From IMG/VR virus record IMGVR_UViG_3300039405_000004: a stretch of 64,000 bases of DNA. One strand, 5' to 3'. The notes beneath the pieces are model-generated. The model was not told the DNA's origin. It did no database searches and saw only the letters and a list, made by a program, of their open reading frames with translations. The translations under genes and the position numbers were made by a program. This stretch comes from a virus. Below, in pieces: positions 1 to 61,944 of the stretch (position 1 is the first letter of the stretch; the number at the start of each line of letters is the position of its first letter).

Positions 1-57
1 TAATCCCCCCTCTCCGTCTGGATCTCTTGGATTGAGGTTTGTGTGGGGAGGGAGGGG

Positions 58-243
58 TTAGTCGGGCTTGGGGGCAGAAGGTTTGCGAGAGGCGCGGAGC
101 CGACGCGCGATCTTCTCGTCCACCGCCGCCCTGACGAAGCTCGCGTGATCCTCGCCTTCCTCTAGCACCGCACGGACGCGCTCCTTCGTGCCAGGGACGA
201 ACCGGATCAGCACCGGCTCATGCTCGTTCTTCGGCCGGCTCAT
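58..243 (-). CDS. Small ribbon-helix-helix-like DNA-binding protein
   Basis: MSRPKNEHEPVLIRFVPGTKERVRAVLEEGEDHASFVRAAVDEKIARR has a strand-helix-helix pattern; ATG at 243 preferred over 294. Confidence 0.6.
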   Translation of the reverse strand: MSRPKNEHEPVLIRFVPGTKERVRAVLEEGEDHASFVRAAVDEKIARRLRASRKPSAPKPD

Positions 244-257
244 ACGGCGGGTTGAAC

Positions 258-359
258 GAGATATCTCCGATGCCGTCAAGTTGGGCTGTTCCATGCGCTT
301 TTCCGAGATATCTCGGATTGCAGCTATAGCACGCCCATGCTACGAATGCGAGATATCTC
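258..359. promoter_or_regulatory. Three GAGATATCTC palindromes (operator-like) between divergent genes
   Basis: Copies at 258-267, 305-314 (inside the perfect 16 bp palindrome 302-317) and 350-359. Confidence 0.65.
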
Positions 360-375
360 GGAAGGAGCGTTTGCA

Positions 376-957
376 ATGGGCCGTGAGATCCGCCGCGTAC
401 CGCCGAGCTGGTCGCATCCGACCGAGATGCGGTTCTGCTGGGCGATGAAGATTGGCTGGACGAAAAAGCTCAGCTACGTGGCGCTGCATAACCAGACGCA
501 CGCCGAAGCTCTGGAGGAATGGGAGGCCGATAAGGCGAAGTGGGAGGCCGGCGAGCGACCTTCCTACGCCTCGCCGGAGACGACCTTCGCCGAGTACTAC
601 GGCGAGCGGCCGAACCCCGATCACTATCAGCCCTTCACGGACGAAGAGGCCACGTGGTTCCAGCTCTGGGAAACCGTGAGCGAGGGCACGCCGGTCTCCC
701 CTCCATTCGCCACCGTGGACGAGTTGGCGGCCTACCTCGCCGAGTGGGGCGACTTCTGGGATCAGAGCCGCGCCGTTGAGGCGATGCCAGCGCATGAGGT
801 CGAACGGCTGCTCGTCGCAACAGACCACAAGCACGAGTTCAAGGCCGGCTGGGGACGTGAGCGCGCAGACGCTTTCTGCCAGACTGGCTGGGCGCCGAGC
901 ATGATGGTCCGGAACGGCGAGATCCTGACGAACCCGGGCGACATGGTGAGCGCGTGA
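376..957 (+). CDS. Phage hypothetical protein
   Basis: GAAGGAG RBS before ATG 376; protein-like composition (MGREIRRVPPSWSHP...WFQLWETVSEGTPVSPPF). Confidence 0.75.
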   Translation: MGREIRRVPPSWSHPTEMRFCWAMKIGWTKKLSYVALHNQTHAEALEEWEADKAKWEAGERPSYASPETTFAEYYGERPNPDHYQPFTDEEATWFQLWETVSEGTPVSPPFATVDELAAYLAEWGDFWDQSRAVEAMPAHEVERLLVATDHKHEFKAGWGRERADAFCQTGWAPSMMVRNGEILTNPGDMVSA

Positions 958-2177: not shown

Positions 2178-2480
2178 ATGGCCGAGAGGAGCGCGGAGAT
2201 GCGACAGCCGATGCAGAGCGACCCGGTGGTCGTGCTTTACACCAACTGGCGCGGGGTCACGGCGGTTCGACGCCTCGTGCCGGCTTCTGCCATCCCGTTC
2301 TGGTGGGGCGAGAGCAGCTACCACAAAGAGCCCGATGGCAAGCCGCTGGAGCAGTGGTTCTTCCGGGCGATCGATGCCGACCGCGAGGAAGACGGCGCCC
2401 GCGACTACGCGCTGTCGGGCGTGAAGGCTTGGGGCATCGATGCCGTGGTCGCTGGTTCGCGGATTGAGCCCCATGCCTGA
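2178..2480 (+). CDS. Stand-alone WYL-like domain protein
   Basis: LYTNWRG...RRLVP...WWG...H...QWFFRAID...RDYAL follows the WYL pattern (Y-x-N...R...P...W-x-L-x-A...R-x-F). Confidence 0.55.
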   Translation: MAERSAEMRQPMQSDPVVVLYTNWRGVTAVRRLVPASAIPFWWGESSYHKEPDGKPLEQWFFRAIDADREEDGARDYALSGVKAWGIDAVVAGSRIEPHA

Positions 2481-3132
2481 CGCCCTCTCCCTTTCCCGAA
2501 CAGAGCTTCCAGAGGAGATCGAGAAGGCGATTATCACGCTTTGTCGCGCGGAAGGATCTCTCGGCAACCTGTCTCTGACCGGCCGCAACTACCAGCGGGC
2601 AATGACCGCAGCATACGAAGCCAGAGAAGCCCTCACCGCCGCGATCCTGTCCCGGCTGGGAGAAGCAGAGGCTCGGCGAGAGGGAGCCCAGGGCGCGCCC
2701 TTCGGGACGGGCTCTAGCCCTTCGGGTCCTGCTCCTTCGGATCAGGAGCCTTCGGCCTACGATCCCTCGCGCAGCCCGCCACGGCCATTGCGCTATAGCG
2801 TCATCCTAAAGTGGAGTGACGAGGACCAAGTCTTCGTCGGCCGTGTTCCCGAACTGCCGGGCTGTTGCTTCCACGGCGACAATCAGGTTGAGGCCATCGG
2901 TGAGGCGGCTTCGGCTATTGCTTGCTGGATCGAGGCGGCCGAGGCGGCTGGCAACCCTATCCCAGACGCGGTGCTGCTAGATGGTGCCGATTTCCCGCCG
3001 TGGTCGCCGCCCGCGCAAGAGACCGAAGCCCGTAGGGCCGAGACCTTGGGCTCGGCTTGCGAGGGCTCGGTGGCCGAAGGCCATGCGCCCGACCTCACCG
3101 AAGCCGGACGCCTCGCGATCAAGGACGCCTGA
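2473..3132 (+). CDS. hicB: Fusion protein containing a HicB-like antitoxin N-terminal domain inside a repeat-bounded cassette
   Basis: YSVILKWSDEDQVFVGRVPELPGCCFHGDNQVEAIGEAASAIACWIEAAEAAGNPIP is a typical HicB RNase H-like domain. Confidence 0.7.
   Translation: MPDALSLSRTELPEEIEKAIITLCRAEGSLGNLSLTGRNYQRAMTAAYEAREALTAAILSRLGEAEARREGAQGAPFGTGSSPSGPAPSDQEPSAYDPSRSPPRPLRYSVILKWSDEDQVFVGRVPELPGCCFHGDNQVEAIGEAASAIACWIEAAEAAGNPIPDAVLLDGADFPPWSPPAQETEARRAETLGSACEGSVAEGHAPDLTEAGRLAIKDA
2691..2772 (-). repeat. Cassette left-end hairpin repeat L1
   Basis: GGGCGCG start, four C(TTCG)G hairpins, GATCCCTCGCGC end; similar to 60551-60634. Confidence 0.85.
3025..3090 (+). repeat. Cassette right-end hairpin repeat R1
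   Basis: GAAGCCCGTAGGGCCGAGAC...GGCCGAAGGCC...GCGCCC; similar to 59734, 61147, 63688 and to the reverse complement of 63158-63186. Confidence 0.85.
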
Positions 3133-6024: not shown

Positions 6025-6042
6025 TCCAGCGCCTCTCAATCT

Positions 6043-6129
6043 GATATCTCTTTTCAACATAGATGATATCTGATACGGGTCAAGCGCGATCCGTGTAGGT
6101 GATATCAACTTGCGGAAAATGGAGATATC
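6043..6129. promoter_or_regulatory. Four GATATC-centred operator-like sites
   Basis: GATATC at 6043, 6065, 6101 and 6124 in an AT-richer divergent intergenic region. Confidence 0.6.
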
Positions 6130-6133
6130 AGCA

Positions 6134-6337
6134 ATGAACGTGGCCGTGGGCCGGAAGCGTATCAACGAAGAGCAGATGCCTGCGCGCCTCCCGGCCGGGA
6201 CGTTCGCGCGGATGGATGCTGTGCTGGATCAGGGCGAAAAGCGGTCCGATCTCCTACGTGGGGCGGTCGAGCGCGAACTGAAGCGGCGGGAGAAACGGCA
6301 GCCAGGAAAAGGGGCTACCGAGGGGGAGAACGGTTGA
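6134..6337 (+). CDS. Ribbon-helix-helix-like regulator coupled to the transposase
   Basis: GRKRINEEQMPARLPAGTFARMDAVLDQGEKRSDLLRGAVERELKRRE; overlaps the transposase start. Confidence 0.65.
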   Translation: MNVAVGRKRINEEQMPARLPAGTFARMDAVLDQGEKRSDLLRGAVERELKRREKRQPGKGATEGENG

Positions 6338-7620
6338 GCGATCTGCTTCGCCTGAAGCACCTGGAGCACGTCGCCGACTACGAAGAGGGCGACGACCTGA
6401 TCATCAAGGCGAGAAGCAAGCGCCCCTCGCCGGAGCGGCAGTGCTGCCTGCTGGTGAACTTCGTCAAGAATGGCCGGAAGACCATGCGCTTCCGTGACGA
6501 GCCGAACCGGCGGCAAACCGTGTTCATCGAGATCGACCGCCAGCGCTTCAAGTGCAAGGAATGCGGCAAGCCGATGTACGAGGGCCTGCCCGACATCGAC
6601 ACCCGCCACGACATGACCAAGAAGCTGCTCCGGCGCATTCAGAAGGACGCCGTCGAGTGGCCGTTCAATCAGGCAGCCCAGGTCAATGGCGTCGATGCCA
6701 AGCAGGTCGAGCGGATCTTCAAGGACTACGCCACCCGGAAGCTCAAGGGCTACGTGCCGACGATGCCGCGCGTGCTCGGCATGGATGAGAAGTACATCCA
6801 GAAGAAGGCCCGCTTCATCCTCGGCGACATCGAACGGGGCGACATGCTCGACATGCAGCCGTCCCGGAAGGTGCTGGACCTGAACCGCTACTTCGGGGCC
6901 ATGCCCGGCAGAAACCACGTTGAGGTGGTCTGCCAAGACATGTGGAAGGACTATCGCGGCATCACCAAAAAGCTGTTCCCGAATGCCGTCACGGTGATCG
7001 ACAAGTACCACGTTCAACGGACATCCAATCGTGGCGTGGAGGCGATCCGGCGCCTGTTCCAGGGGGACGTGTCGAGATCTGAGCGCATTCACCTTAAGAA
7101 CAAGCAGAAGGTCTTCCTCGCTCGTTGGGAGACCGCGAAGCCCTTCACCCGCAACCAACTGACCGCCCTGTTCACCTTCTTCCCCGAACTCAGGCACGCC
7201 TACGAGTGGAAGGAGGCCTACTACGAGATCTACGACGCGACCTCGAAAGCCGAGGCGAGCGAGCGCATGGATCAGTGGCTGCGGGATCTGCCACCCGCCT
7301 ACCGTCGCCCATTCAAGCCGAGCATCGACGCCATCAACAACTGGCGGCCGTGGATCTTAAACTACTGGGACCACCTCCAAACCAACGCCTATGTCGAAAG
7401 CCTGAACAATCTCATCGGCCGCATGAACATGCAGGGCGTCGGCTACGACCTCGAAACGCTGCGGGCGAAGGCCCTGCTCAAGCACGGCCGGATCGGCGAG
7501 GAGATCCGGCTCGGCATCACCCGCGAAGGCCACGGACACGGCGCGCTGCGGACCCGGAAGTTTATCCTCGGCGTGCCGCTATCAACCCTGGAAGCCGATT
7601 TAGCGGCGGGTACGTTCTGA
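6334..7620 (+). CDS. ISL3-family transposase
   Basis: Zn finger (RFKCKECGK), GMDE, CQDMW, IDKYHV and TNAYVESLNNLI motifs; intact 428 aa. Confidence 0.9.
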   Translation: MSDLLRLKHLEHVADYEEGDDLIIKARSKRPSPERQCCLLVNFVKNGRKTMRFRDEPNRRQTVFIEIDRQRFKCKECGKPMYEGLPDIDTRHDMTKKLLRRIQKDAVEWPFNQAAQVNGVDAKQVERIFKDYATRKLKGYVPTMPRVLGMDEKYIQKKARFILGDIERGDMLDMQPSRKVLDLNRYFGAMPGRNHVEVVCQDMWKDYRGITKKLFPNAVTVIDKYHVQRTSNRGVEAIRRLFQGDVSRSERIHLKNKQKVFLARWETAKPFTRNQLTALFTFFPELRHAYEWKEAYYEIYDATSKAEASERMDQWLRDLPPAYRRPFKPSIDAINNWRPWILNYWDHLQTNAYVESLNNLIGRMNMQGVGYDLETLRAKALLKHGRIGEEIRLGITREGHGHGALRTRKFILGVPLSTLEADLAAGTF

Positions 7621-7661
7621 CCCCGGATCAACCCCGAAAGACGTTAACCCGACCGGACACG

Positions 7662-7692
7662 AAAAAACCGCCTCGGCGGGTGCCGGGCGGTT
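7662..7692 (-). terminator. Intrinsic terminator ending the late/lysis operon
   Basis: AACCGCCCGG...CCGAGGCGGTT hairpin followed by a T-tract on the minus strand. Confidence 0.75.
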
Positions 7693-7727
7693 GGGCAGAG
7701 AGAAGATTGTGAGAGGCGCAGTCCCGG

Positions 7728-54259: not shown

Positions 54260-55084
54260 ATGGCCAAAACCCGCACCAAGCCTACGAAGGCGGCTTCTCC
54301 AGTTGTGCCCAATCAGGCGGATGAGCCGTTCATCACCTCGTACAAGGGCTTCAATCGCGACCTGACGTGCCGCGGTTTCAAGTTTGAGATCGGCAAGACC
54401 TATACCGTCGAGGGCAAGGTTGAGGCGTGCAGCAACGGTTTCCATGCCTGCGAGCACCCGCTCAACTGCTTCGACTACTACGCCCCGGCTACGTCGCGGT
54501 TCTTTGAGGTTCGTCAGTCTGGCGAACTCGCCCGGCACGCTGCCGACACGAAGGTCGCTTCCGCCAAGATCACGCTCGGCGTTGAGCTTTCTATCGGCGA
54601 TATGGTCGCCCGTGCGGTGAAGTGGGTGTTTGATCAGGCGAAGCCTGAGAACACTGAGCACGCCACCGGGGACCAGGGTGCCGCGTCCGCCACCGGGCAC
54701 CGGGGTGCCGCGTCCGCCACCGGGGACCAGGGTGCCGCGTCCGCCACCGGGTACCGGGGTGCCGCGTCCGCCACCGGGTACCAGGGTGCCGCGTCCGCCA
54801 CCGGGTACCGGGGTGCCGCGTCCGCCACCGGGGACCAGGGTGCCGCGTCCGCCACCGGGGACCAGGGTGCCGCGTCCGCCACCGGGAAGCATAGTGTTGC
54901 CTGCGCCCTTGGCGAGGATGGATCCGCTTCGGCCGACGAGACCGGCGCAATCGTCATCGTCAATCGCGATCCGTTCAGCGGTGCCATCCGGCGGATTTTT
55001 GCATCGAAGGTCGGCGAGAACGGCATCAAGGCTGGCGTCTTCTACCGCCTGTCGGATGACGGCCTGCCCGTCGAGGCTGCCTAG
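54260..55084 (+). CDS. Phage protein with GAASATGxx nonapeptide repeats
   Basis: YKGFNRDL.CRGF.FE.G...GFHACEHPL..F.YY, followed by the repeats. Confidence 0.85.
   Translation: MAKTRTKPTKAASPVVPNQADEPFITSYKGFNRDLTCRGFKFEIGKTYTVEGKVEACSNGFHACEHPLNCFDYYAPATSRFFEVRQSGELARHAADTKVASAKITLGVELSIGDMVARAVKWVFDQAKPENTEHATGDQGAASATGHRGAASATGDQGAASATGYRGAASATGYQGAASATGYRGAASATGDQGAASATGDQGAASATGKHSVACALGEDGSASADETGAIVIVNRDPFSGAIRRIFASKVGENGIKAGVFYRLSDDGLPVEAA
54662..54886 (+). repeat. 27 bp coding tandem repeat, 8 full units plus a partial
   Basis: GCCACCGGG-NNNNNN-GGTGCCGCGTCC. Confidence 0.95.
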
Positions 55085-56882: not shown

Positions 56883-57388
56883 ACGCCCCCGTCCGCATCC
56901 CGCTCCATCAGGAGATGGCCGTTGCCAGCCAAGTGGCGGCCGCTCTGATCGCCGCGGGCATTGAGCCGGATGATCCCGACTTCACCGAGCTGATGGCCTC
57001 GGAGACCGACGTGCTGGAGCGTCTGCGCCGGATCCTCCGCGCCGCGACCCGCACAGAGGCCCACAGCGAGGCGCTGGCGGGCATCATCAAGGACAACCGG
57101 GAGCGGAAGGCCCGGCTGGACAGCAAGGCTGAGCGGCTTCGTGGCGTGGTTCTGCAGGCCATGGCCGAACTCGGGCTGAAGAAGCTTGAGGGGCCCGACC
57201 TGACCGCCACGGTCGGCGCCGGCAAGCCCAAGGTGGTCATCACCGACGAAGCCGCCCTTCCGGACGACGCCTGCGTCTTCAAGCGTGAGCCGAGCAAGGC
57301 CGCCATCGCCGCCGCACTCGCCGATGGCCCGGTCGCCGGAGCCGAGTGGGGCAACCCGCAACCCGTTCTTACCGTGAGAACGCGATGA
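56879..57388 (+). CDS. Siphovirus Gp157-like protein
   Basis: Coiled coil; V.ITDEAALP...EPSKAAI..AL..G.V.GA. Confidence 0.8.
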   Translation: MNAPVRIPLHQEMAVASQVAAALIAAGIEPDDPDFTELMASETDVLERLRRILRAATRTEAHSEALAGIIKDNRERKARLDSKAERLRGVVLQAMAELGLKKLEGPDLTATVGAGKPKVVITDEAALPDDACVFKREPSKAAIAAALADGPVAGAEWGNPQPVLTVRTR

Positions 57389-57864
57389 GCGAGGCTCGCA
57401 AGCGCGCGGACGATTTCGTCTCGTTCATGCGACAGGTCGCGATCGGGGCCGACAAGGGGTCCTGCTGGCTATGGACTGGCGGCGGCGGTGATGGTCGCTA
57501 TGGCCATTTCTGCATCGACGGTGGTTCGGTGAAAGCTCACCGATGGATCTACGACTATGTCGTTGAGCCAATCGATGATGGCCTCGTGCTCCGGCACCGC
57601 TGCGACAATCCTAAGTGCGTGAACCCGGCGCACTTGGAGCCCGGCACTTCGTCGCAAAACACGCAAGATGCGATTGAGCGCGGTCGCTGGCCGGATCGAT
57701 CCGGCGAAAAGCATCCGATGGCCGTCCTTGATGCGGAGAAAGTCGTTCGCATCCGAAATTTAGCGGCGCTTGGCTACACGCAACACTGGATAGCGGAACA
57801 GTGCGGCATCTCCCGGCAGCACGTCGGGAAAATCGTTCGGCGCGAATGCTGGGATCATATCTGA
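57385..57864 (+). CDS. HNH endonuclease
   Basis: CWLWTG...YG.F...AHRW...LRHRCDNPKCVNPAHLEPGT. Confidence 0.9.
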   Translation: MSEARKRADDFVSFMRQVAIGADKGSCWLWTGGGGDGRYGHFCIDGGSVKAHRWIYDYVVEPIDDGLVLRHRCDNPKCVNPAHLEPGTSSQNTQDAIERGRWPDRSGEKHPMAVLDAEKVVRIRNLAALGYTQHWIAEQCGISRQHVGKIVRRECWDHI

Positions 57865-59079: not shown

Positions 59080-59459
59080 ACACCGGCCTTCCCATCCCGC
59101 CGAGCGAAGTCGCCGAGATGATCACCCTCGCAGAGCAGGGCCTGTCTCGCACGGACATCGCCGCCATCATGGATCGGTCCTACCGGACCGTCCGCAAGTA
59201 CGTCGGGCATATTGCCTGCGGTGAGGCTGGACGTCCTGCCGACGTCGATCGCTACCGCCGGATGCTCAGGGCCGTCTCTTCGGCTGGGTACGGCGACAGA
59301 GACGGCATCGCCCGCCGCTTCGGCCTCAAGGACGCTGACGTTCTCCGTGTCGTCCTCGTGAGAGCCCGTCGCGCTGTTGCTGCCGCTCTCCCCGTTACCG
59401 ATGCCCTGGGCGCCGGGAAGGCGGGTGAGGACGAGAGGAGAAGACATCATGGCGCGTGA
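59076..59459 (+). CDS. HTH protein
   Basis: GLSRTDIAAIMDRSYRTVRKY. Confidence 0.65.
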   Translation: MNTGLPIPPSEVAEMITLAEQGLSRTDIAAIMDRSYRTVRKYVGHIACGEAGRPADVDRYRRMLRAVSSAGYGDRDGIARRFGLKDADVLRVVLVRARRAVAAALPVTDALGAGKAGEDERRRHHGA

Positions 59460-59814
59460 CTTCGTCGCCGAGCCCTCGCCCTTCGGGTCGAGCCCTTCGG
59501 TCTCGCCGGCTGACGCCGCCACGGTCTCTCGCGCGGGTGAGCCGCCGCCGCGACCGCTCAGCAGCCTCACGCCGCAAGAGATCAAATGGTGTTCCCGGCG
59601 CGTCTGTTTCCTGTGCGAGCAGAGGCTGAGCACCGACACGTGCGGTGGCTTGTTCGAGCGCTGCACTCAGGAAACGATGGATCGGCGTCGCGGCAATGCT
59701 CTCGCGACGTATCGGCCTCGTGCGCCAAAGATCGAAGCCCGTAGGGCAGAGATGCGAAGCAGCTCTGTCGAAGACGAGAGCTTGGTGACCGTAAGGTCAG
59801 GCGCCCATGAATAG
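59449..59814 (+). CDS. Cassette-encoded Cys-rich protein
   Basis: Both termini are encoded by repeat ends; core WCSRRVCFLCEQ...CGG...C. Confidence 0.55.
   Translation: MARDFVAEPSPFGSSPSVSPADAATVSRAGEPPPRPLSSLTPQEIKWCSRRVCFLCEQRLSTDTCGGLFERCTQETMDRRRGNALATYRPRAPKIEARRAEMRSSSVEDESLVTVRSGAHE
59451..59534 (-). repeat. Cassette left-end hairpin repeat L2
   Basis: GGCGCG start, TTCG hairpins, CTCGCGC end. Confidence 0.8.
59734..59806 (+). repeat. Cassette right-end hairpin repeat R2
   Basis: GAAGCCCGTAGGGCAGAG...TGACCGTAAGGTCA-GGCGCCC. Confidence 0.85.
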
Positions 59815-59882
59815 CCCCGTCCCCCTCCCCCTCCCCCTCGCCCTAGCCGGCGCCATCGCGATCACCGCGGGAGAAAAGCATC

Positions 59883-60497
59883 ATGGCTGACCAGACGATG
59901 TACGTCCGCATCGTGGGCGAACCGTTTCTGTCGCGCGCCAAGGCGTACCGGGAGCAGCTTGCGGCCTGGGGCGACGCTTGGAAGCCATTCGTCCAGGAGC
60001 GTGGCGGTGATGGCGTCAGCGTCAGCGGCAAGGCGCTCAGCTTCAAGAACGGCAAGGCCCCCGAGGGCTGGACGCGGCCGGCCGGGAACGCCGGCATGAG
60101 CCATCCGAAGAAGGGCCACCCAGATATTGAAGCGCTGGCCCACCTCCGAGAGAAGTCCCCGCGCCCAGACAGCCGTGACGTCTTTGGTGACGAGATCCCG
60201 CTCAACCTGTCCTGGGAGGCGGAAGGCGGCGGCCGCGGAAGCTGCGGGATCGGCAACATGGGCCTGATCCTCAACGGCCCGCACGTCGGCTGGGCCGGCG
60301 ATACCTACCTCGGGTGGACGGCCGACCCGGCAGCCGCCGTGGCGGCCCATCTCGCGGCCTACCCCGATCACCGCATTGTTGGGGCGGCCGCGACGTGGAC
60401 GATGCCCGCCGGTCTGATCCGGCTCACCGAGGCCGAGTACGAGCTGATCTTCGCTCAGCACAAGGTCGACCTGGAGCGCGCCGGAGAGGCCGCATGA
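59883..60497 (+). CDS. Hypothetical protein
   Basis: GGAG RBS; 204 aa. Confidence 0.65.
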   Translation: MADQTMYVRIVGEPFLSRAKAYREQLAAWGDAWKPFVQERGGDGVSVSGKALSFKNGKAPEGWTRPAGNAGMSHPKKGHPDIEALAHLREKSPRPDSRDVFGDEIPLNLSWEAEGGGRGSCGIGNMGLILNGPHVGWAGDTYLGWTADPAAAVAAHLAAYPDHRIVGAAATWTMPAGLIRLTEAEYELIFAQHKVDLERAGEAA

Positions 60498-60550
60498 CCT
60501 CCCTCGCCCTGGCCGCCGGTCTGCTCGCCTACACCGGAGGAGAAGCGGGT

Positions 60551-60634
60551 GGGCGCGTCCTTCGGACCGGGCTCTCATCCTTCGGATCGGACCCCTTCGG
60601 GTTCCGCCGGCTACGCCGTTTCGATCCCTCGCGC
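60551..60634 (-). repeat. Cassette left-end hairpin repeat L3
   Basis: GGGCGCGTCCTTCGGAC...GATCCCTCGCGC, similar to L1. Confidence 0.85.
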
Positions 60635-60648
60635 GGAGGTGCCTTCTG

Positions 60649-61221
60649 ATGGGCTATTGGGATACGCCCGGCCAGTCCGACGAGTGGTACACGCCACCAG
60701 CTGTATTCGCCGCTCTCGGGTGCCACTTTGACTTAGACGTAGCTCCGGCTCGATTTGGACGCGACTACGTTCCCGCGGATGCTCGCGTCTCAGGATGCGG
60801 GCTTTCGGCACCATGGCATGGGACAGTGTGGTGCAACCCGCCTTTCGGCGGCCGAAACGGCATTGAGCCATGGCTCAACCGGTTCTTTAGTCACGGCGAT
60901 GGCATCGCCCTTGCGCCTGATCGGACGTCCGCGCCGTGGTTCTGGTCGGCGTGGCGGAGAGCCGACACGGTACTGTTCACTCGTAAGATCAGGTTCATCC
61001 GTCCGGATGGTACGGAGGGCGTGTCTCCATCTAATGGCACTGCATTATTCGCAGTCGGCGATCGTGCTTCGGCAGCGCTGTCACGAGCAGCGCGACGTGG
61101 GTTTGGCATTCTAGCACTTCCCGGCTCAGCGCCCGCGCAAGCAATCGAAGTCCGAAGGACAGAAACGCAAAGCGGTTCTGCTTGCGAGAGTGCGGTCGGC
61201 GTAGCCGAGGCGCCCAAATGA
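60649..61221 (+). CDS. Phage DNA N6-adenine methyltransferase (Dam-type)
   Basis: DEWYTP..VF..LG..FDLDVA...W.G.VWCNPPF. Confidence 0.88.
   Translation: MGYWDTPGQSDEWYTPPAVFAALGCHFDLDVAPARFGRDYVPADARVSGCGLSAPWHGTVWCNPPFGGRNGIEPWLNRFFSHGDGIALAPDRTSAPWFWSAWRRADTVLFTRKIRFIRPDGTEGVSPSNGTALFAVGDRASAALSRAARRGFGILALPGSAPAQAIEVRRTETQSGSACESAVGVAEAPK
61147..61215 (+). repeat. Cassette right-end hairpin repeat R3
   Basis: GAAGTCCGAAGGACAGAA...TTCTG...TCGGCGTAGCCGA-GGCGCCC. Confidence 0.85.
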
Positions 61222-61364
61222 CCGCCTCAGACGCCTTCTGTCTCACCGTCGCCATGGTCGGCGGCACCGCGCTCACTGCGGTGACATGGCGCCTCGACAA
61301 GCCCGTCCGCTCAGCAGGCTCAAGGCGGACTTGGCTGCGCTGCCTCATTCGATCGAACCGATAG
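61218..61364 (+). CDS. Small membrane peptide
   Basis: ATG directly after R3; hydrophobic N-terminal half. Confidence 0.4.
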   Translation: MTASDAFCLTVAMVGGTALTAVTWRLDKPVRSAGSRRTWLRCLIRSNR

Positions 61365-61376
61365 GAGACTGACGCC

Positions 61377-61607
61377 ATGGAGATTAAGAACGCGACCACG
61401 GTTCACCGGCTCTGGGGATCTCTCACCGACGCCGAACTGATCGCTGTCTTCCAATACGACACTGACGCCAAGAGCTTCTGTGAACGCTGCATTGAGCAGC
61501 AGCCCAAAGAAGCAGCCCTCATCTGGGTCAGCCACTACGACGGCAAGATGAACATCGTTCGTCATGCCTCCAAGGCCGCCCCCGCGACCGAAACGTCGGG
61601 AGCCTGA
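61377..61607 (+). CDS. Hypothetical protein
   Basis: AGGAG RBS. Confidence 0.6.
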   Translation: MEIKNATTVHRLWGSLTDAELIAVFQYDTDAKSFCERCIEQQPKEAALIWVSHYDGKMNIVRHASKAAPATETSGA

Positions 61608-61610
61608 GAG

Positions 61611-61943
61611 ATGGCAGACCGCAAAATCCACTGGCGCTGCTTTCATTGCGGCGAGGCCTTCACCAAGGCGCAAGAGCGCTGGGCCCGCCAGCACTTCGGG
61701 GCTGACGAGATGGAGACCCCCGTCTGCCTGATGCGGATCCCCGGCGAGCATCACCTGCTGGAGCGCCTTCGCCGGCAGGAGGCGGAACTGGCCGCCTACC
61801 GGGCCGAGGACACCAACCTGCATCGGGCGATCCACGCCATGTCATCCGACCACGCGCAGGCGCTGCGCCGCGAGGAAGAGCGCGGCTACGAGAAGGGCCT
61901 CCGTGATGGTCAGGCTCTGGCTCTCACCCCCTCGGAGGCATGA
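61611..61943 (+). CDS. Zn-finger hypothetical protein
   Basis: WRCFHCGE.F...A.QHFG. Confidence 0.7.
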   Translation: MADRKIHWRCFHCGEAFTKAQERWARQHFGADEMETPVCLMRIPGEHHLLERLRRQEAELAAYRAEDTNLHRAIHAMSSDHAQALRREEERGYEKGLRDGQALALTPSEA

Positions 61944-61944
61944 C

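Follow-up and report, generated by a model that had tools for sequence, protein, structure and literature searches.

We analysed a 64,000-nt stretch of viral DNA (IMG/VR record IMGVR_UViG_3300039405_000004), referred to in its whole length as the window. It belongs to a temperate phage of an alphaproteobacterium, and its closest relatives are from Methylobacterium. The subject of this report is cassette 3, in which a predicted Dam-type DNA adenine methyltransferase gene (methylase) lies between a left arm (L3) and a right arm (R3) that are inverted copies of one folded DNA unit of approximately 88 nt. The window carries four such L/R cassettes. The features at cassette 3 are listed below, where ORF denotes an open reading frame, GC3 the GC content at third codon positions, and sTM a membrane-protein gene of 49 aa found in sibling phages.

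60494-60539, plus strand: 5' stump of sTM, 15 codons (MTSLALAAGLLAYT), 97.6% identical to positions 861-902 of contig L048 and 652-693 of contig L045
60494-60649, plus strand: 51-aa ORF, a fusion of the sTM stump with L3, which is also a called gene in Logan contig L022
60547-60637, minus strand: L3, left arm, a reverse-orientation copy of the ~88-nt unit (cmsearch 46.6 bits, E 1e-10)
60635-60639, plus strand: Shine-Dalgarno sequence GGAGG, located at the inner end of L3 and followed after 9 nt by the methylase ATG at 60649 (direct reading)
60649-61221, plus strand: methyltransferase cargo, Dam-type N6-adenine DNA, 190 aa (from Pfam profile, homologues, and GC3)
61132-61219, plus strand: R3, right arm, a forward unit (cmsearch 90.7 bits, E 1e-23) that codes the methylase tail
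61218-61364, plus strand: second-type sTM gene, complete, 48 aa, directly downstream of cassette 3

The methylase is translated from its own Shine-Dalgarno sequence and ATG at the inner edge of L3, which makes cassette 3 an exception among the cassettes. L3 is out of frame with the methylase and has an 8-nt insertion relative to L1, the left arm of cassette 1. The 51-aa ORF reads L3 in a non-standard frame and overlaps both neighboring genes, at its start with the stop of a 204-aa gene (ATGA) and at its stop with the methylase start (TGATG). At the other end, R3 terminates at an ATGA stop/start overlap, in which the methylase stop TGA (61219-61221) overlaps the ATG (61218) of the 48-aa gene. 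An earlier sequence-only reading of this DNA had described the ribosome-binding site after L3 and the methylase ATG at 60649, had assigned the methylase C-terminus to R3, and had placed the next gene 2 nt past its R3 end at 61215; each of these was found as described, with residues 162-190 coded by R3. Look-up of the 48-aa downstream protein gave only matches from the same phage. The 204-aa upstream gene had no relative in IMG/VR, and relatives were found in a larger protein collection.

The cargo matched the Pfam profile PF05869 (Dam) at 32.3 bits (E 1e-7; curated gathering cut-off 28.1), with methylase residues 9-132 aligned to profile positions 8-139 of 169. The catalytic (D/N)PP(Y/F) motif was present in the translation as NPPF at residues 63-66, within WCNPPFGG. 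All 119 of the closest homologues (159-223 aa) shared a common MGYWD-type start and aligned to residues 1-158, and the gene is therefore complete, as the sequence-only reading had claimed. These homologues finish around residue 160-170, and a tblastn search against phage Dam genes covered residues 7-157. The methylase was 67-80% identical to proteins of Methylobacterium, Methylorubrum, and relatives, which carry source names such as phage or DNA N-6-adenine-methyltransferase. Among INPHARED phages there were methylase-level matches only (Caulobacter phage DMCA and Komagataeibacter phages), and that collection held no close relative of the whole region. Sequence searches of NCBIfam and PDB gave no match to the methylase, that is, no equivalog and no solved relative.

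These data indicate that the cargo is a complete, ordinary full-length member of PF05869, a predicted orphan Dam-family adenine methyltransferase. It resembles other orphan phage methylases of this family in its above-cut-off hidden Markov model match, its NPPF motif, and its full length. In contrast to them, it carries a 29-residue C-terminal extension encoded by the R arm (residues 162-190, PAQAIEVRRTETQSGSACESAVGVAEAPK) and has a GC3 of 0.60, unlike the surrounding phage genes (0.82-0.85 in resident neighbor genes). The low GC3 suggests foreign origin and recent import. Judging from the protein family, the methylase would modify the phage DNA and thereby blunt host restriction, a predicted anti-restriction role.

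Cassette 3 and its slot in sibling phages

Siblings of slot 3 were defined as contigs encoding a protein identical to the 76-aa protein found downstream of cassette 3. From 61304 onward, the window was 95.7-99.4% identical to three of them (L044, L045, and L049). In the empty state, represented by L044, L048, and L049, the 49-aa sTM gene is unbroken. In the window, sTM codons 1-15 (60494-60539) are followed by 7 nt, by L3, the methylase, and R3, and then by the complete second-type sTM gene (61218-61364); homology of the stump with L048 and L045 breaks off at 60539. In L045, the flank of which is 99.4% identical, sTM is split by a different L/R cassette (L at 760-855, R at 1264-1351), which carries an unrelated, Cys-rich protein of 196 aa; at the cassette's right end (CAATGATCCCC), the 3' part of sTM resumes in frame. 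R3 was 88.5% identical to the R unit of the L045 cassette; the inner 62 nt were nearly identical and one hairpin alone (P5, see below) was exchanged with its pairing kept, and the L units and cargoes differed. A contig from public run X7 joins 60546 to 61218 and so leaves out exactly cassette 3 (letters between the two sides are not given); runs X8 and X9 cover the flanks only. Slot 3 is insertion-polymorphic, being empty or holding the methylase or an unrelated gene in near-identical phages. The position 3' of the 204-aa gene is also variable in relatives, where a further L/R cassette (L027), a unit-free C5 methylase (L028), or a different gene (L031) is found.

A separate arrangement was observed in L044 at 1805-2988, where a 5' stump of sTM is followed by an L unit (1912-2006) and then by three genes as cargo (103, 161, and 71 aa), with no R unit detected ahead of a complete sTM gene. 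This could be either a one-armed or decayed cassette or a multi-gene cargo.

The comparison of homologues suggests only weakly that the methylase travels with its arms. An R-like tail was present in 1 of the 119 closest homologues (P0007, 67% identical), where it is fused at nearly the same point; the L unit of P0007 lies 1.2 kb upstream, before a second gene, and its R unit is very unlike R3. The closest named relative, a Methylobacterium bullatum prophage gene (L020), has no units. R3 is closer to the R unit of the unrelated L045 cassette than to that of P0007, which argues that the arms stay with the site and the phage lineage and that the cargo is exchanged. The sequence-only reading had suggested checking whether the repeat pair accompanies methylase homologues into different gene neighborhoods. 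The neighbors did differ in all three contexts compared, so the synteny is not constant, but most homologues have flanks without the hairpins and P0007 stands alone in its tail. Its wider proposal, that the cassette system can move whole genes, survives in part: a whole gene does lie within an L/R pair, cargo elsewhere is diverse, and the slot is polymorphic, but there was no evidence of L3, the methylase, and R3 moving as one piece.

The other three cassettes of the window are as follows.

2687-3094, plus strand: cassette 1, with L1 (2687-2775, minus), a HicB-like cargo, and R1 (3010-3094, plus), in frame within ORF 2440-3132
59446-59810, plus strand: cassette 2, with L2 (59446-59537, minus), a Cys-rich cargo, and R2 (59719-59810, plus)
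63116-63757, plus strand: cassette 4, with L4 (63116-63204, minus), a 468-nt cargo, and R4 (63673-63757, plus), at the end of a 603-aa ORF

At cassette 1, the relative L023 was identical to the window up to 2687 and 91% identical from 3094, and it carried 529 bp of unrelated genes with zero units between these breakpoints. ORF 2440-3132 is chimeric: one gene supplies the N-terminus, cassette 1 follows, and a second gene contributes its final 12 codons. At cassette 4, L044 was identical to the window up to 63124 and from 63753, with no units between, and in L045 an unrelated cargo of 237 nt lies between L4/R4-like arms (83% and 82% identical). Cassette 2 has arms that were 89-90% identical to arms in L007, which enclose an unrelated cargo and lie in another context. 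The cassettes form discrete modules whose ends are structured and inverted; siblings differ at the unit edges, and the modules can sit within genes with translation unbroken.

Two endonuclease genes were noted near these loci. In L026 (1490-1708), the junction of cassette 1 and the initial 27 nt of L1 were present at 97% identity and then gave way to a short remnant followed by an HNH_3-type homing-endonuclease gene, which may reflect either endonuclease insertion into the unit or erosion of the unit. In the window, a free-standing HNH_3-type endonuclease gene (57346-57864) with a low GC3 of 0.69 lies 1.6 kb upstream of cassette 2, among recombination genes.

The folded unit and its family

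Three L and three R copies are readily apparent in the window. Alignment of L units with reverse-complemented R units showed that L and R are opposite orientations of one ~88-nt unit with conserved ends (GGGCGC...GCGCCC). A covariance model (model R1) was trained on 16 R-type units only, 4 from the window and 12 from viral contigs. When the 64-kb window was scanned with it, exactly 8 units were found, forming four convergent L/R pairs; the four window L units, which were absent from the training set, were detected on the opposite strand at E 1e-6 to 4e-11. Because this R-only model scores both R3 (E 1e-23) and L3 (E 1e-10), the two arms of cassette 3 are beyond chance. In R orientation, the fold has a closing stem P1 (GCGCN/NGCGC) with P1b and P1c, the tip hairpins P2 (typically GCCC-GTA-GGGC) and P3 (CGAG-A-CN...NG-G-CTCG), an optional P4, and the variable hairpin P5 between P1b and P1, with five helices overall.

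Standard pairs occupied 97% of the paired cells in the 16 R units and 96.7% in a set of 60 units from 24 sources, compared to only 26-44% and 20-48%, respectively, when the partners were slid. Pairs changed on both sides numbered 14 of 24 in the smaller set and 22 of 24 in the larger, with 59 and 287 compensatory cells, and 0 of 500 shuffles matched the observed covariation score in either set. G-U pairs were scarce (approximately 14 among approximately 1350 paired cells in the 60 units). Variability by codon position in translated R units was 0.120, 0.142, and 0.150, with no third-position excess; such equal variability implies that the conserved R peptide (AQAIEARRAET..GSVHESAV) is a by-product of conserved DNA. 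L-to-R identity was 0.69 within pairs and 0.68 between pairs, and each unit therefore folds locally, with no joint long hairpin formed by the two arms. Full-length pairing of L with R, whether as RNA or as an attC-like single hairpin, was rejected on the same figures. Taken together, the scarcity of G-U pairs, the equal codon-position variability, and the equal arm identity within and between pairs point to a constraint that would act at the DNA level and be strand-symmetric.

The P2 loop was G-N-A in 49 of the 60 units, and loops of this type cap most of the small hairpins. C-GNA-G is a very stable DNA mini-hairpin, and G-N-A-capped mini-hairpins are a feature of stable single-stranded DNA. 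The P4 hairpin was usual in L-type units, and most R-type units had GTTCAC at that place; GTTCAC contains TGA on the opposite strand, and P4 in L would fit selection for an open L frame. Single-arm RNA folds compared to shuffles gave z values of -3.3 to +0.9, which are indecisive alone, and Rfam contained no family for the arms at gathering or permissive thresholds. A constant outer terminus (ATGA/CATG) was considered and rejected, as it was present in only about 12 of the 60 units.

Two further features of the units were observed. GATC, usually inside CGATCG, is kept at the P1c junction in most units (R3 reads AATCGA at 61143-61148), and it would be a Dam-type target in a phage with a Dam-family methylase. 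On the outer side of both arms, the flanking sequence is frequently C-rich on the unit strand (CCCCTCCC-type), for example at window positions 59811-59845 and at many other loci. The left outer flank then reads as a GGAGG-like ribosome-binding site, and the inverted symmetry may extend approximately 20 nt past the modelled unit.

A profile of the R tail matched 696 representative proteins (50% identity clusters, E <= 1e-3), nearly all at the extreme C-terminus. Among the best 150, lengths were 36-255 aa, an L-type peptide was present near the N-terminus in 92, and the middles were mutually unrelated. Only single Pfam matches were obtained among the cargoes, and they included Lar restriction alleviation, HNH, HicB-like, SpoU methylase, the DnaA C-terminal domain, a ClpX zinc finger, and DUF6197. 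L, cargo, and R share one open frame in 12 of the 17 pairs examined; this frame begins 3-40 nt upstream of L and ends 2-50 nt past R, and the cargo between paired units spans 181-1211 nt. Near-complete viral genomes of 40-46 kb held 3-13 units each, in clusters, and units were also found in other frames or outside ORFs (L003, L006, and L010-L012). The exact R core had 3 matches in 185,579 genomes, one per species, and a host chromosomal repeat of the repetitive extragenic palindrome (REP) type was rejected because the core is almost absent from species genomes. A limited, literal full-text literature search found no description of this cassette family, which by itself leaves novelty unproven.

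Exchange of cassettes and the alternatives weighed

We interpret cassette 3 as one of four swappable single-gene slots in which inverted folded DNA units act as exchange joints and the methylase is the cargo, and we put the probability of this reading at about one half. Each slot would be bounded by two inverted, self-folding ~88-nt units whose fold is constrained as DNA, and the arm-coded peptides would be a by-product of arms that need to stay open inside operons. In cassette 3, R3 adds 29 residues to the methylase, and its ATGA would hand ribosomes to the next gene. The folded units would be the joints at which cassettes are gained, lost, and re-loaded. Replacement of cargo would most likely proceed via recombination between units of different phages or prophages, and first insertion at a new site would need a structure-directed cut-and-join step, for which a structure-specific enzyme is the natural candidate. 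Similar arms around differing cargo, as in R3 compared to L045 and cassette 2 compared to L007, fit recombination between units; the junctions of cassettes 1 and 4 with unit-free DNA require another step beyond unit-unit exchange. In the related phages L027 and L031, the cassettes have Rad52-/RecT-type recombinase genes a few kb upstream, and NinB is placed in this way in the window. We propose more tentatively, as something possible that we would not yet call probable, that the L/R units constitute an undescribed, widespread cassette system of temperate alphaproteobacterial phages with ends recognized by a structure-specific enzyme.

Several points weigh against reading the cassettes as swappable slots with the units as joints. 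Homologous exchange between units cannot explain the cassette 1 and 4 junctions with unit-free DNA, and no recombination intermediate, excision circle, or enzyme was identified. The joint in the X7 contig may reflect a replacement and not an empty site. Arm-free genes for the 76-aa protein and a 110-aa protein are also gained and lost gene-precisely, as contigs from X7 and X8 skip one, the other, or both (61374-61577, 61613-61944, and 61379-61963) in a part of the window with no L/R units; cassettes are thus not the only genes here with breakpoints at their edges. Some R units stand alone, with no L partner detected. Finally, the structure was derived from the same kind of sequences as those scored, and the alignment (A9) was fitted to the model.

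The cassettes could alternatively be non-autonomous, transposon-like mobile insertion cassettes, with the ~88-nt ends as terminal inverted repeats and L-cargo-R moved whole by a dedicated enzyme supplied in trans, such as a tyrosine recombinase encoded nearby, an enzyme of the host, or a nuclease of the HNH or HUH type that acts on single-stranded hairpins. We consider this unlikely; in its favor are the inverted ends with their conserved GGGCGC...GCGCCC termini, the outer-end breakpoints against unit-free DNA at cassettes 1 and 4, the insertion within coding sequence (sTM split in L045; cassettes 1 and 4 inside ORFs), the several copies per phage genome, the HNH nuclease among the cargoes, and the G-N-A-capped mini-hairpins typical of stable single-stranded DNA. 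Tyrosine-recombinase genes are also found 0.4-5 kb from cassettes in the window's contig (L022), in L016 and L027, and at 7 of 21 IMG/VR loci; however, these look like ordinary phage integrases, and their proximity is expected anyway for accessory genes of temperate phages. No target-site duplication was seen at the junctions examined (cassettes 1, 3, and 4), which are replacements or are flanked by diverged sTM pieces. There was no transposase among the 150 cargoes (only Pfam was searched), and the sole transposase in the window belongs to an ISL3 element with ends unrelated to the units. Empty L-R elements were not seen, the smallest cargo being 181 nt, whereas miniature inverted-repeat transposable element (MITE) families consist mostly of empty copies. 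Moreover, the arms follow the site and not the cargo (R3 compared to L045 and L016).

The ISL3-family insertion sequence (IS) lies at approximately 6029-7719. Its DDE_Tnp_ISL3 transposase (E 2e-46) is probably ORF 6334-7617, and its inverted ends are imperfect and approximately 30 nt long (GCGCCTCTCA.../...TGAGAGGCGC). Derivation of the arms from these ends was rejected, since the two are unrelated. An integrase gene lies just past the right end of the window (L022 5661-5871), and in L023 (1-730) an integrase directly precedes sequence homologous to window positions 8-383. The record is therefore circular or permuted, and the four cassettes cluster within approximately 8 kb around the integrase.

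An action of the arms in mRNA, as RNA structures that set translation, coupling, or transcript stability and that spread via selection for regulation, is improbable in our estimation. The positions of the arms agree with such a role, as, in 12 of 17 pairs, L follows the start codon by 3-40 nt and the end of R precedes the stop by 2-50 nt; R3, R4, and the L045 R unit finish in ATGA stop/start overlaps, L forms C(UUCG)G-type loops in the sense RNA, and the methylase Shine-Dalgarno sequence sits at the inner edge of L3. However, near-absence of G-U pairing is unusual for a structure selected in one RNA strand, and regulation in mRNA would leave the reverse-complement relation of L and R unexplained. 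Paired arms are also no more complementary than arms of other cassettes, single-arm folds are not clearly more stable than shuffles, and Rfam gave no match. Least probable of all is that the arms are conserved coding peptide tags of small phage proteins, with the methylase tail derived from ordinary phage mosaicism: although the R peptide is highly conserved and always C-terminal across 696 protein clusters, and the L-type peptide recurs near the N-terminus in 92 of 150, the three codon positions are equally variable, the stems covary while the peptide changes (AEGHAP, TVRSGA, or GVAEAP in the P5 region), no peptide function requires L to be the reverse complement of R, L3 is conserved though out of frame with the cargo, and units also lie in other frames or outside ORFs.

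Known systems and wider meaning

Promoter-early stem-loops (PeSLs) of T4-type phages are conserved structured repeats of short length that flank non-essential genes in hyperplastic regions (PMC2839356). They are intergenic, combine a sigma70 promoter and a terminator stem-loop, and lie in direct orientation, and recombination between PeSLs yields mini-circles (Arbiol et al. 2010, PMC2839356). The cassettes described here resemble PeSLs in that the breakpoints of insertions, deletions, and replacements among sibling phages fall at the repeats (cassettes 1, 3, and 4) and in that both are proposed vectors of modular shuffling. In contrast to PeSLs, the units are 88-nt multi-helix structures that are inverted, lie inside ORFs in 12 of 17 pairs, and occur in temperate alphaproteobacterial phages.

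MITEs and mobile insertion cassettes are IS-derived inverted-repeat elements with passenger genes (PMC10969869). The cassettes share with them terminal inverted repeats, transposase-free cargo, many copies, varied passengers, and polymorphic presence. They differ in that no target-site duplication, cognate transposase (Pfam only), or empty copies were found, and in that the unit ends are long covarying hairpin structures, whereas MITE ends are transposase-binding sequences. MIC231 of Bacillus cereus is an example of a mobile insertion cassette. Rickettsia palindromic elements (RPEs) are in-frame palindromic repeats in protein genes that are translated as harmless peptide inserts (PMC10969869). 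The likeness here is the single open frame of L, cargo, and R in 12 of 17 pairs and the fusion of cassettes 1 and 4 to resident ORFs. RPEs are set apart by their description, however, as single, cargo-free elements of approximately 150 bp (RPE-1 to RPE-10) in Rickettsia chromosomes, whereas the present units are paired, enclose cargo, and occur in phages of Alphaproteobacteria other than Rickettsia.

In integrons, each cassette has a single attC site at the 3' end; these sites are directly oriented, have RYYYAAC/GTTRRRY cores, and pair their two halves into one hairpin, and the cassettes are inserted by IntI at attI, forming an array beside the recombinase gene with its attI and Pc. The phage cassettes are like integron cassettes in being promoterless, diverse, and single-gene, in a recombination site that would be set by folded DNA structure and not by sequence, and, at many loci, in clustering 0.4-5 kb from a tyrosine-recombinase gene. 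They differ from them in having two inverted units per cassette, no RYYYAAC/GTTRRRY cores in the consensus, and arms with no preferential mutual pairing. The phage cassettes are interspersed with other genes. REP elements and their inverted doublets (REPINs) have GTAG-headed hairpins and are mobilized by a RAYT (Y1) gene; P2 here is often CCC-GTA-GGG, which contains GTAG, and the unit is rare in host chromosomes. The cassette lacks defining features of PeSLs, MITEs, RPEs, and integrons, and it resembles each in one respect.

Accessory and counter-defense genes of phages turn over fast, and the mediators of this turnover are little known outside the PeSLs of T4-type phages. Here, a structured DNA unit sits at the exact edges of swappable genes, in at least approximately 700 distinct protein clusters. 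If the proposed system is real, its Y-shaped, strand-symmetric, G-N-A-capped ends would let whole counter-defense genes enter operons, and even genes, with translation unbroken. Its cargo would span a Dam methylase, Lar, a HicB-like antitoxin, HNH, and unknowns in their hundreds, and it would parallel the integron in function with a different architecture. The cassettes also offer a tractable system for how folded DNA directs phage gene exchange. The covariance model and the peptide tail could serve as a handle for harvesting hundreds of candidate anti-defense genes from metagenomes. For annotation, the tail that recurs at the C-terminus of unrelated small phage proteins, and the leader at their N-terminus, would be translated repeat DNA and not protein domains.

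A repeat of another kind was also present in the window. At 54607-54984, a 27-nt repeat occurs in tandem, with at least 10 copies, inside ORF 54260-55081, which may be the source of the Pfam collagen triple-helix repeat match obtained in 1 of the 44 window proteins scanned.

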